The notes below the pieces were generated by a model. The model was given only the letters and a program-made list of their open reading frames with translations, was not told where the DNA came from and did no database searches. From IMG/VR virus record IMGVR_UViG_2537562091_000002: a DNA stretch of 5,175 nucleotides; one strand, given 5' to 3'. Source of the stretch: a virus (lineage: Duplodnaviria > Heunggongvirae > Uroviricota > Caudoviricetes). The position numbers and the translations under genes were made by a program. The stretch's first letter is position 1. Each line of letters begins with the position of its first letter. Shown piece after piece: positions 1 through 5,175 of this stretch.

Positions 1-195
1 CCTGTCATACGCGTAAAACAGCCAGCGCTGGCGCGATTTAGCCCCGACATAGCCCCACTGTTCGTCCATTTCCGCGCAGACGATGACGTCACTGCCCGGC
101 TGTATGCGCGAGGTTACCGACTGCGGCCTGAGTTTTTTAAGTGACGTAAAATCGTGTTGAGGCCAACGCCCATAATGCGGGCTGTTGCCCGGCAT
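1..195 (-). CDS. insB: IS1 InsB, 5' part only (65 codons; 3' end lies beyond the window)
   Basis: Minus-strand ATG at 193-195, then [65 protein letters not shown] to position 1; overlaps insA in another frame as in canonical IS1. Confidence 0.8.
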
Positions 196-389
196 CCAAC
201 GCCATTCATGGCCATATCAATGATTTTCTGGTGCGTACCGGGTTGAGAAGCGGTGTAAGTGAACTGCAGTTGCCATGTTTTACGGCAGTGAGAGCAGAGA
301 TAGCGCTGATGTCCGGCAGTGCTTTTGCCGTTACGCACCACCCCGTCAGTAGCTGAACAGGAGGGACAGCTGATAGAAACAGAAGCCAC
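114..389 (-). CDS. insA: IS1 InsA (transposition regulator / N-terminal part of the InsAB' transposase), GTG start
   Basis: 91-aa translation [40 protein letters not shown]...LKNSGRSR matches recalled IS1 InsA throughout; stop TAA at 114-116. Confidence 0.95.
132..138 (-). other. IS1 A6C slippery run (programmed -1 frameshift site producing InsAB')
   Basis: Minus strand reads TTAAAAAACTC here, at the insA/insB overlap. The role of this motif in IS1 is established knowledge. Confidence 0.7.
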
Positions 390-421
390 TGGAGCACCTC
401 AAAAACACCATCATACACTAA

Positions 422-444
422 ATCAGTAAGTTGGCAGCATCACC
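422..444. repeat. IS1 terminal inverted repeat (insA-proximal end)
   Basis: ATCAGTAAGTTGGCAGCATCACC is the exact reverse complement of the recalled 23-bp IS1 IR. Confidence 0.85.
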
Positions 445-1817: not shown

Positions 1818-3784
1818 TATATTATCTCTCCCATTTGCGCATCGGTTAATTCTTTATGCCATATTCTAAAATTCCTGATATAACCAAATAAATGACGTAA
1901 GCCGGCTGTAGTCTGGCCTCCAATCCTTATACCTGTAGCACCACTAACACTCTTCCACGTTGTTGATGCTGGTGTTGATAAAACCCCATTGCAGCCAGCC
2001 TGAAACTTGCCATCGCTTTTTATTCTATATACAGCGATAATCTTTCTTGGGTAATTTCCAGGTGGAAATGATATTGGATTACCAAATTGAACATATGGAG
2101 TTCCTACACTACCTGCTGTATTTCTGAATGCAAAAACAAAAGCGTCGTCTTTTGTTTTAAATCCTGTTATATCATAAATTCTAGGCGCGGAATTTGGTGC
2201 CATAGACCAATTTTTATTCACTTCAACCATGCAGGTTAAAGGTTTGCTGGCCATGTTATTTTTACAAGGCAATGTAACAATATCGCTTGCTCGCGTTGAT
2301 GCAACTGTATCGGAAATGATAAAAGATGATGCGCATGAGCCGCCTTCAAATTGTGGTGTCGTAACATCCAAATATTCCCCGCCCAAATAAGTTCCAGGTG
2401 AAACAGGTGGAGCAATTTGGATCTGAGAGCCAACCATATTATCAATAGCTTCAGATTGATATGTAACCTCGAAATAAATCCATCCATTAGATTCTTTCTC
2501 CGCTCGGGCGGTTATTCTTGCAGCCCCTCCTCCCGTTTTCCTAATGGACATATCTGTTATATTAAGATATGCATCTGCCAGATAAAAATATGCGGACCCG
2601 TCATATCTTTCAAATCTTATACGACATTGTATATTAGCACTATCGCTTTTTACACGACATGATGTTGTAACATACTTTTCAGTTCCAGTAACATCGACAC
2701 CTCTTCCTCCTGAAACCGCAGCGATATTCATTGTCGTATTTGTCCCAATTTTTTCGTCCTTTATTTGAAACCGCCCATAAGTAAAGCCAAACTCATCAAC
2801 ACCACTTTCTGTTATAGTTACACTTGTTGTAGCTCCCCACTTAGATGGCGTAAGTGAATTAAGATGATAGTTGGTTCTTTGTCCTTCAATCAGCAAACCT
2901 TCTCGTTCAAATCGCGGTTCGTCAACTTCAGCAACGGTTAATACTCCTGATTTATTAATGTATGTTGCACCTGATGCGCGTTTGAAGCTAACAACCTTAT
3001 CGGATGGCATTTTAATAACATCATCACCTACAGTTATTTGCTTATAACCAGGCGAAAAGCCAGCAAGCATATCCAGTGAATCGTTAAACGGTATCCACAC
3101 ATCGGGAAGCGGCTGCAAAACTTGTTTATACGGCTCCGCAGCCTGGCTTGCATACTCTCTGGCTGCGTCTTCACTTGCTTTTGCAGCCGTCTGGCTTGCA
3201 GCGGATGCTTTCGCCGAGTTAGCCGCCGCAGTCTCGCTCGCCTTTGCGTTGGTTTCACTGGTTTTTGCAGCTTTTTGACTGTTGGCTGATGCAGTGGCAG
3301 AAGAAGCCGCCGCACTTGCAGAACCAGCTGCGGCACTCTCGCTTTGGGCCGCTGCATCCTGACTGTTTTTCGCCGCAGTTTCGCTGGCTTTGGCATTCGT
3401 TTCGCTGGTCTTCGCTGCCGTCTGGCTGGACTTTGCGTTAGTTTCGCTCGTCTTCGCTGCTTTCTGGCTGTTAGCTGCAGCAGTTGCTGATCCAGCTGCT
3501 GAAGTCGCAGAACCGGCTGCCGCACTCTCGCTTTCGGCTGCTGCAGCCTGACTGCTTTTCGCCGCAGTTTCACTGGTTTTGGCATTCGTTTCGCTTGTTT
3601 TCGCTGCCGCCTGGCTGGACTTTGCGTTGGTTTCGCTCGTCTTTGCTGCTGTCTCGCTATTTTTCGCGTTGTTTTCTGATTTTTTAGCTGCTGTCGCGGA
3701 GTTTGCCGATGCAGTCTGCGAGGCCGCTGCCGCCTGTGCGCTGTTAACCTGAATCGGTTCGTGCTGCCTTTGCGGTTTCCTGAT
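1817..3784 (-). CDS. Side tail fibre protein (Stf family), N-terminally truncated remnant. Open frame 3784-1817 with no canonical start; the only start candidate is TTG at 3116-3118. C-terminal LamG/concanavalin-A-like lectin-type domain.
   Basis: Manual translation of the frame continuous with the 1817..3118 ORF stays open up to TGA at 3785-3787. Residues upstream of 3118 read ...AAKTSETNAKASETAAKNSQDAAAQSESAAAGSA..., typical of lambda Stf-type shaft repeats. The C-terminus ...IGGQTTAGLRHLFGYIRNFRIWHKELTDAQMGEII fits the LamG signature (IGG...G.IDEVRIYNRALSAEEI). Confidence 0.8.
   Translation of the reverse strand: MRKPQRQHEPIQVNSAQAAAASQTASANSATAAKKSENNAKNSETAAKTSETNAKSSQAAAKTSETNAKTSETAAKSSQAAAAESESAAAGSATSAAGSATAAANSQKAAKTSETNAKSSQTAAKTSETNAKASETAAKNSQDAAAQSESAAAGSASAAASSATASANSQKAAKTSETNAKASETAAANSAKASAASQTAAKASEDAAREYASQAAEPYKQVLQPLPDVWIPFNDSLDMLAGFSPGYKQITVGDDVIKMPSDKVVSFKRASGATYINKSGVLTVAEVDEPRFEREGLLIEGQRTNYHLNSLTPSKWGATTSVTITESGVDEFGFTYGRFQIKDEKIGTNTTMNIAAVSGGRGVDVTGTEKYVTTSCRVKSDSANIQCRIRFERYDGSAYFYLADAYLNITDMSIRKTGGGAARITARAEKESNGWIYFEVTYQSEAIDNMVGSQIQIAPPVSPGTYLGGEYLDVTTPQFEGGSCASSFIISDTVASTRASDIVTLPCKNNMASKPLTCMVEVNKNWSMAPNSAPRIYDITGFKTKDDAFVFAFRNTAGSVGTPYVQFGNPISFPPGNYPRKIIAVYRIKSDGKFQAGCNGVLSTPASTTWKSVSGATGIRIGGQTTAGLRHLFGYIRNFRIWHKELTDAQMGEII
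3240..3720. repeat. In-frame tandem direct repeat, period 189 bp (63 codons), about 2.5 copies, encoding the fibre shaft low-complexity repeats
   Basis: Near-identical blocks start at 3321 and 3510 (GAACCAGCTGCGGCACTCTCGCTTTGGGCC... vs GAACCGGCTGCCGCACTCTCGCTTTCGGCT...). The sub-motif CTTTGCGTT.GTTTC.CT.GT recurs near 3242, 3431 and 3621. Confidence 0.85.
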
Positions 3785-3791
3785 TCAGCAT
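3744..3791 (-). pseudogene. 15-codon stub (MLNQETAKAARTDSG*), interpreted as the remnant 5' end of the gene after nu1 (terminase large subunit by position)
   Basis: ATG overlaps the nu1 stop as TAATG and is preceded by AGGAGGAG. The frame stops after 15 codons exactly where the Stf-type repeat sequence begins. Too short to identify by sequence; the call rests on position. Confidence 0.35.
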
Positions 3792-4285
3792 TACTCCTCC
3801 TGCTGTAATTCCTCCTCATCATCCGCACCTGCTTCAGTCACCCGCAGGGCTATCTGATCGCGCAGATCATCAATAATGGACTGAACACGGCTCACAGCGG
3901 CAGGCTGCAGACCGCAGTCACGTTCAAGAATATCCGGTAATGTCTCCAGCACCTGCACGACCGCTTTTGCCCAGATGGCAAACTCCCGTCTGACATCACT
4001 GGCCGGAATGAGTTGTGCCGTTTCCTGTTCGAACTTAAGACGCTCACGTTCAGACTGATACCAGGCTTTGCGCTCATGCGCGTCCATTTCGCCTTCTGCA
4101 ACCGGCGGTGGTAATGCCAGAAATGCCGACACAATATCAACCACCCGATAAAGCTTGAGGTTGCTTTCATGCCCCCCTGCAACGGGTAGATTTTGCAGCC
4201 TTGCCGCAGCAGTCTGGCGATGTACACCTGACAATGCCGCCAGTTGACTGATATTCAGCGTCAGATTTTTTAACTCTCGATCCAT
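3791..4285 (-). CDS. Terminase small subunit, lambda Nu1 / Noh family (164 aa)
   Basis: ATG at 4283-4285 with GGAG 7 nt upstream. N-terminal HTH-like segment LNISQLAALSGVHRQTAAARL parallels lambda Nu1 KKQLADIFGASIRTIQNWQ. Sits about 175 bp downstream of a cosN-like site, as in lambda. Confidence 0.85.
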   Translation of the reverse strand: MDRELKNLTLNISQLAALSGVHRQTAAARLQNLPVAGGHESNLKLYRVVDIVSAFLALPPPVAEGEMDAHERKAWYQSERERLKFEQETAQLIPASDVRREFAIWAKAVVQVLETLPDILERDCGLQPAAVSRVQSIIDDLRDQIALRVTEAGADDEEELQQEE

Positions 4286-4500
4286 ACCCGCTCCAGAATG
4301 TTTTAAACATGCATCTTGCGAACAACTTTAGGCAAACGGTGTTAGTGATGAACAAAAAACAATCAGAATCGACACCATAAAAATAAAACAACTGTAATAT
4401 CAATCAATTACAGTAGTGGTGATGACGAATAAAATTTCAAAAACTAGCCTTTTTCCGCGACGCTCCCGCCCCGTGGCAGGGCCCCCCCACTGGGAGGACC
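4286..4500 (-). other. cos region: cosN-like 12-mer (minus strand GGGCGGGAGCGT, plus 4460-4471), cosQ-like sequence on the high-coordinate side, AT-rich cosB-like spacer towards nu1
   Basis: Minus strand reads ...GGGTCCTCCCAGTGGGGGGGCCCTGCCACG GGGCGGGAGCGT CGCGGAAAAAGG... Recalled lambda is ...GGGTCCTTTCCGGTGATCCGACAGGTTACG GGGCGGCGACCT CGCGGGTTTTCGC... The 12-mer matches 8/12, both nick-flanking triplets/pentamers match, and the spacing to GGGTCCT is the same. Confidence 0.55.
4391..4414. repeat. Perfect 8-bp inverted repeat with 8-bp spacer (ACTGTAAT-ATCAATCA-ATTACAGT) inside the cosB-like spacer
   Basis: Read directly from the sequence; function unknown. Confidence 0.5.
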
Positions 4501-4718
4501 CGACAGCCTGACAACCGTGACGAGCATCTGTAACAGAGCTTTACATAATGGCATGGGGATAATTCAGAAGGACATCACAGCATGCCCACACAAATTAGTG
4601 TGAGTGTCCTGTTTCTTACTACGCGCAGGACTGACGAGCATGAGGGGAAAATACGAGAAACGAAATGCCTTATCTTCAGAAATGCAGCCGGCATCCGAAC
4701 TGGACGATATTGTAAATT

Positions 4719-4757
4719 TGATCTTACCCAGCAATAGTGGACACGCGGCTAAGTGAG
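4719..4757. repeat. IS3 left terminal inverted repeat (approximate extent)
   Basis: Element terminus begins with TG at 4719; the roughly 39-bp IR length is recalled, not measured. Confidence 0.6.
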
Positions 4758-4783
4758 TAAACTCTCAGTCAGAGGTGACTCAC

Positions 4784-5083
4784 ATGACAAAAACAGTATC
4801 AACCAGTAAAAAACCCCGTAAACAGCATTCGCCTGAATTTCGCAGTGAAGCCCTGAAGCTTGCTGAACGCATCGGTGTTACTGCCGCAGCCCGTGAACTC
4901 AGCCTGTATGAATCACAGCTCTACAACTGGCGCAGTAAACAGCAAAATCAGCAGACGTCTTCTGAACGTGAACTGGAGATGTCTACCGAGATTGCACGTC
5001 TCAAACGCCAGCTGGCAGAACGGGATGAAGAGCTGGCTATCCTCCAAAAGGCCGCGACATACTTCGCGAAGCGCCTGAAATGA
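4784..5083 (+). CDS. insE: IS3 OrfA (InsE). The ORF track starts at GTG 4775; the canonical ATG is at 4784 with AGAGG upstream.
   Basis: Translation MTKTVSTSKKPRKQHSPEFRSEALKLAERIGVTAAARELSLYESQLYNWRSKQQNQ...ATYFAKRLK matches recalled InsE. The CCAAAAG slippery motif lies at about 5043-5049. Confidence 0.9.
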   Translation: MTKTVSTSKKPRKQHSPEFRSEALKLAERIGVTAAARELSLYESQLYNWRSKQQNQQTSSERELEMSTEIARLKRQLAERDEELAILQKAATYFAKRLK

Positions 5084-5175
5084 AGTATGTCTTTATTGAA
5101 AACATCAGGCTGAGTTCAGCATCAAAGCAATGTGCCGCGTGCTCCGGGTGGCCCGCAGCGGCTGGTATACGTGGT
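5080..5175 (+). CDS. insF: IS3 OrfB (InsF), 5' part only, with an apparent 1-nt deletion in an A-run (possibly inactivating, possibly a homopolymer sequencing error)
   Basis: ATG at 5080 encodes MKYVFIE in frame 1. The conserved continuation HQAEFSIKAMCRVLRVARSGWYTW is encoded from 5103 in a different frame. The window has GAAAAC where the recalled sequence has GAAAAAC. Confidence 0.7.
   Translation, partial: MKYVFIENIRLSSASKQCAACSGWPAAAGIRG

Follow-up and report, generated by a model that had tools for sequence, protein, structure and literature searches.

The window, by which we mean the whole 5,175-nt stretch of DNA analysed, ends inside an IS3 copy that lacks one A at the start of orfB, and this missing A is most probably a homopolymer under-call (a sequencing or assembly artefact) in a gapped draft assembly. 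The true IS3 copy at this locus probably carries AAAAA and an intact orfB. An earlier note, made from the sequence alone, had proposed a one-nucleotide deletion and left a sequencing error open as the alternative. The evidence favours that alternative: the draft contig ends at an N gap, the orthologous copies have 5 A, and two further homopolymer changes private to the same assembly lie nearby, one of them contradicted by independent assemblies. The features referred to below are the following (window coordinates).

1..444, minus strand: left 444 nt of IS1, with insA at 114-389; the contig start cuts the element, and an N gap lies beyond it in the scaffold
3791..4285, minus strand: gene for a DUF1441 protein, in the position of the terminase small subunit; left neighbour of IS3, marking the orthologous site
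4482..4488, plus strand: run of seven C (six in relatives), intergenic between the DUF1441 gene and IS3; a private length change
4719..5175, plus strand: left part of IS3, 457 nt, equivalent to nt 1-458 of the element less one A; the contig end cuts the element
4784..5083, plus strand: orfA, intact (99 aa + stop), with a Pfam HTH_Tnp_1 domain
5046..5050, plus strand: A-AAA-G slippery motif for -1 programmed frameshifting, unchanged; AAG at 5048-5050 is an orfA codon
5051..5089, plus strand: stem-loop and potential pseudoknot; the stem-loop (5051-5072) lies directly 3' of the slip site
5080..5175, plus strand: start of orfB, in frame 1 until the A-run; the conserved sequence from 5103 is in another frame
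5099..5102, plus strand: run of four A (five in IS3), corresponding to IS3 nt 381-385 and orfB codons 7-8

Identification of the IS3 copy

The left inverted repeat (TGATCTTACC...) begins at position 4719, directly preceded by ATT, and the right end, which lies outside the window, reads ...GGTAGGATCA followed by ATT in both the source scaffold (L017, described below) and EC931. The element is thereby flanked on both sides by ATT as a 3-bp target duplication, and together with inverted repeats of the form 5'-TG...CA-3' this duplication is a hallmark of IS3. As in IS3, orfA (frame 0) is overlapped by orfB in the -1 frame and contains an A-AAG slip site, and the nucleotide sequence is nearly identical to IS3 (99.8% over 459 nt to thousands of annotated copies). 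The one IS3 property that we looked for and that the deposited sequence lacks is an rve (DDE) domain that shares its frame with the start of orfB. The reading frame is lost at 5099-5102; the rve part is found past the scaffold gap in L017 as a 148-aa fragment. The element is IS3, the absent in-frame catalytic domain being the doubtful feature itself.

Compared with IS3 of Escherichia coli (IS3 family, IS3 group; RefSeq "IS3-like element IS3 family transposase", WP_085947598.1 / WP_085947771.1), the window copy has the same left inverted repeat, orfA, slip site, stem-loop and orfB start, and with the EC931 copy it also shares the insertion site in a Qin-like prophage and the ATT target duplication. 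It differs from IS3 in being one A short at IS3 nt 381-385 and in that its middle ~322 nt are unsequenced in the scaffold. Once shortened by one A, the EC931 copy matches the window at each of the 457 positions.

The loop CAUACU (5058-5063) is complementary to AGUAUG (5084-5089), a pairing read from the sequence that would form the potential pseudoknot. A stem-loop/pseudoknot reportedly acts as a stimulator of frameshifting in IS3, as Sekine et al. are said to have described in 1994. The A-run begins 10 nt past the last base of the potential pseudoknot, and the recoding signals are therefore untouched. A scan of positions 4700-5175 against Rfam at E-values up to 1 returned no family; a literature search on IS3 OrfAB, the pseudoknot and frameshifting found no papers, and a wider search returned only general IS3-family background.

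The A-run and the reading frames

The window sequence around the A-run is ATGAAGTATGTCTTTATTGAAAACATCAGGCTGAG, with four A at 5099-5102 (GAAAAC at 5098-5103). Frame 1 from the ATG at 5080 encodes MKYVFIENIRLSSASKQCAACSGWPAAAGIRG and runs on to the window end, and the conserved OrfB continuation, HQAEFSIKAMCRVLRVARSGWYTW, is encoded from 5103 in a frame that differs from that of the ATG; the spacing between the OrfB start and this continuation is 23 nt where 24 are required.

We ran megablast with window positions 4717-5175 against 5,426 complete E. coli genomes and obtained matches in 4,605 genomes, the top matches aligning all 459 bases of the query to 460 bases of the record at 99.8% with one gap. 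Base-by-base alignment placed this gap in the A-run, where the window has 4 A and EC931, PK8276, REL606 and TUM10008 have 5. Essentially all IS3 copies of the 5,426 complete genomes have AAAAA: an exact 91-mer with 4 A occurred in 16 of the 4,801 matching records, which hold about 13,700 places (~0.1% of places). Its four A set the window apart, by one specific base, from a consensus that hardly varies, and chance similarity does not explain the difference. The earlier note was thus right both that one A is absent at the orfB start, leaving the two frames 23 nt apart, and in recalling GAAAAAC for IS3, 5 A being what the other copies have.

Orthologous insertions in the Qin-like prophage

The locus is a Qin-like defective prophage, and IS3 occurs at the same site, beside the gene for the widespread DUF1441 protein (43,474 blocks), in six complete genomes. 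In EC931 and PK8276 the orthologous IS3 has 5 A and is annotated in RefSeq with an intact programmed-frameshift transposase; in E. coli B REL606 and TUM10008 the right junction agrees, the left deletion is a different one, and the run again has 5 A. Over window positions 3745-5175 (1,431 nt), the comparison with EC931 yielded zero substitutions and only two differences, both in homopolymer length (C7/C6 and A4/A5).

The window carries a deletion junction at 3745-3746, which fuses the first few codons of the terminase large subunit gene to the alanine-rich repeats of the side tail fibre gene, with loss of the genes for head and tail. This junction was found only in L017 and two further contigs of the same lineage (L018 and L019) and is absent from the 5,426 complete genomes, and a 264-aa ORF spanning it is not on record; in EC931 and E. 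coli B this prophage has other deletions. Window positions 3100-3750 are taken up by the alanine-rich repeats of the side tail fibre gene, and 3224-3469 match a second, offset stretch of the EC931 repeat region at ~84% identity; in relatives, the RefSeq annotation of these repeats is a patchwork in which short ORFs lie on either strand. Position 2201 is C in the window and T in REL606, PK8276 and TUM10008, a lineage marker, and because of this substitution the 417-aa tail-fibre protein is nearly unique (4 contigs on record). At position 445 the left end of IS1 adjoins a remnant of the tail-fibre-assembly gene. Elsewhere in the same prophage, IS1 lies inside a 93-aa gene in TUM10008 and at a position matching window 2563 in EC931; these differing positions among relatives indicate repeated independent IS1 insertion in the region.

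The source contig and its gaps

The window corresponds to positions 13070-7896 of L017 (scaffold GL872249.1 of the draft assembly GCA_000191015.1), with 100% identity over all 5,175 nt, and constitutes one whole contig of that scaffold. Among complete-genome, phage and plasmid records, none was collinear with the whole window. A gap of 687 N (L017 7209-7895) directly follows window position 5175, inside IS3, and a gap of 284 N (L017 13071-13354) directly precedes position 1, inside IS1. About 322 nt of the IS3 copy fall in the scaffold gap, past which the right 479 nt of the element are present, identical to the EC931-type copy and followed by ATT. Because of the gap in IS3 the contig stops 73 nt past the A-run, which lies in sequence common to all IS3 copies of the genome. 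The gaps of L017 are of estimated size (382, 687 and 284 N), which marks a mate-pair-scaffolded draft and nothing more. The platform behind GCA_000191015.1 may have been pyrosequencing (454), to judge by assemblies of that period.

An A-run close to a contig end within a repeat makes a consensus error in homopolymer length plausible. The assembler reached only 457 nt into the multi-copy IS3 before the gap, and the length error would have arisen at the A-run, 73 nt from the contig end in repeat sequence.

Other homopolymer changes private to the source assembly

The C-run at 4482-4488, seven long in the window, is six long in EC931, in PK8276 and in L018 and L019, two independent short-read contigs that share the terL-stf deletion junction of L017; over the 4,274 nt compared between L018 and the window, the C-run is the only difference. 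L018 and L019 end 75-139 nt into IS3, short of the A-run, and so have no bearing on the A-run itself. A third private homopolymer change lies at L017 position 5538 in ynfN, which has A6 against A7 in four complete relatives and a gene call of 63 aa against 76 aa. Across the 10.4 kb of L017 that could be compared with complete relatives, we found three indels, all of them private one-base homopolymer changes; the stretch contains 186 runs of at least 4 nt, of which these three are affected. We infer a common cause for the A-run difference and the other two. Errors in the assembly are few, since 3,302 nt of tail-fibre genes are free of indels relative to REL606 and none of six core genes in L017 departs from its usual length.

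The four-A allele in other genomes

We inspected 11 copies with 4 A, taken from 10 of the 16 complete-genome records and one metagenome contig. Nine of them carried 1-12 more homopolymer indels within the same IS3 copy, and genes near four-A copies were often flagged "frameshifted" (in DH5alpha, for example, dgcT is broken too). The IS3 copies of strain 114 and SBF45, and also that of NZ_LR778148.1, all from complete genomes, show no indel besides the missing A, and genuine four-A alleles may therefore exist at low frequency. An exact 47-mer with 4 A had no match in GTDB species representatives or in IMG/VR, and one match in JGI metagenome contigs; this IS3 copy is unrelated and has three homopolymer indels besides.

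An old insertion at the alpha-amylase locus is common to 502 genomes, of which three have 4 A (SBF45, ESBL 15 and NZ_LR778148.1) and the rest 5 A. The allele is accordingly sporadic at this shared insertion and defines no clade, and we rejected the idea of an inherited lineage allele. Elsewhere, then, the four-A allele is sporadic and mostly bears the signature of assembly error, although a few cases may be genuine.

Weighing of the explanations

Two observations point to an artefact: the one-base difference is private to a single assembly (A4 against A5 in EC931 and PK8276), and that assembly has other private homopolymer changes, of which C7 is contradicted by the independent L018 and L019. 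The complete genomes put a bound of about 0.1% per copy on genuine private loss of this A, and in this assembly a private length change affects 2 of the 185 other runs (about 1%), so that an artefact is favoured by roughly an order of magnitude; the position at a contig end inside a repeat adds further weight. The homopolymer errors of draft and long-read assemblies, which tend to persist within repeats above all, show the same pattern, a private one-base change near a contig end in a repeat with other private changes alongside, and the co-occurrence of the four-A allele with many homopolymer indels in other assemblies is likewise that of known assembly errors. Several points speak against an artefact. 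The run is short, and five nucleotides is little for a consensus homopolymer error; there are only 3 changes in 10.4 kb and none in the six neighbouring core genes; and with the contig indel-free over 3,302 nt and the core genes normal, this assembly is not error-riddled. All three private indels lie in a decaying prophage/IS region, where real frameshifts are tolerated. The copies of strain 114 and SBF45 with the missing A as sole indel may also count against it.

A real one-base deletion by replication slippage in the A5 of this IS3 copy is an explanation that we consider unlikely but the foremost of the alternatives. The result would be an ordinary non-autonomous copy with intact ends, movable only by the transposase of other IS3 copies and still making OrfA. 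The deposited sequence does have 4 A, its predicted products are truncated, and decay is expected in a defective prophage that has undergone large deletions and IS insertions; the contig is otherwise free of indels over 3.3 kb, the strain 114 and SBF45 copies supply clean parallels, and inhibition by OrfA and OrfB has been reported in the IS3 group (PMC5771124). A deletion of this kind is at odds with the 5 A of the orthologous copies, with the restriction of the allele to a gapped draft at a site 73 nt from the contig end in a repeat, and with the two other private homopolymer changes close by, one of them contradicted by independent assemblies. It is also hard to square with the rarity of the allele in complete genomes (~0.1% of places), where it mostly stands alongside obvious assembly errors.

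We regard it as very unlikely that reads of several IS3 copies were merged into the final few hundred bases of the contig, so that the 4 A, genuine or otherwise, would belong to another copy in the genome. The contig does enter a multi-copy element for 457 nt and break at a gap, and IS3 occurs at a median of 3 places, and at most 16, in the genomes that contain it; the available data, however, show no heterogeneity among the IS3 copies of the strain, and outside the A-run the 457 nt do not differ from the orthologous copy in EC931.

Extremely unlikely in our judgement is the broader proposal that the A5 at orfB codons 7-8 is a recurrent slippage hot spot producing OrfA-only copies that damp IS3 transposition in trans, with the window, strain 114 and SBF45 as examples. 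Finally, a real deletion compensated in expression, with transposase made through slippage of transcription or a +1 ribosomal shift at the A-run, has only the proximity of the run to the known recoding site in its favour, and we rejected it as the least likely of all: no Rfam family or extra signal was found in the region scanned, the five-A form is near-invariant, and the runs known for transcriptional slippage are far longer than four A.

Predicted products of a four-A copy

To predict the consequences of a real four-A run, we took one A out of the orthologous EC931 copy. OrfB would then be 38 aa instead of 288 aa, and OrfAB 137 aa instead of 387 aa. In Pfam, wild-type OrfAB matches HTH_Tnp_1, HTH_21, rve, rve_2 and rve_3, and the 137-aa product matches HTH_Tnp_1 only. 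As OrfAB would be cut before HTH_21 and rve, the copy would be without transposase, keeping its ends and OrfA. The earlier note had argued that a real deletion would disrupt OrfB and OrfAB and leave the copy non-autonomous, and as a conditional statement this is correct (HTH_21, rve and rve_2 are lost). It had also described the conserved segment HQAEF...WYTW as the helix-turn-helix region, which holds only loosely: the segment spans OrfAB 108-131, Pfam HTH_21 lies further downstream at OrfAB 152-201, and at the segment itself there is a sub-threshold match to HTH_Tnp_1_2 (E 0.0026, 18.3 bits, cut-off 27.9).

The transposase of the IS3 family is OrfAB, whereas OrfA and OrfB by themselves are reported as inhibitors of transposition (PMC5771124). 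The predicted outcome is the same as in decayed non-autonomous IS copies, with the ends and orfA intact and the catalytic domain out of frame. Unlike in such copies, the frameshift here is without independent support and is contradicted by the orthologous copies.

Meaning for IS3

Nothing new is involved: the missing A reflects a miscalled base or else the routine pseudogenisation of an IS copy. If it is an artefact, homopolymer frameshifts near contig ends in the insertion sequences of draft assemblies should not be taken for pseudogenisation. If it is real, this would be one more decayed IS3 copy in a decaying prophage, which is commonplace. Either way the matter carries little biological weight, and knowledge of IS3 and of its programmed frameshifting is unchanged.
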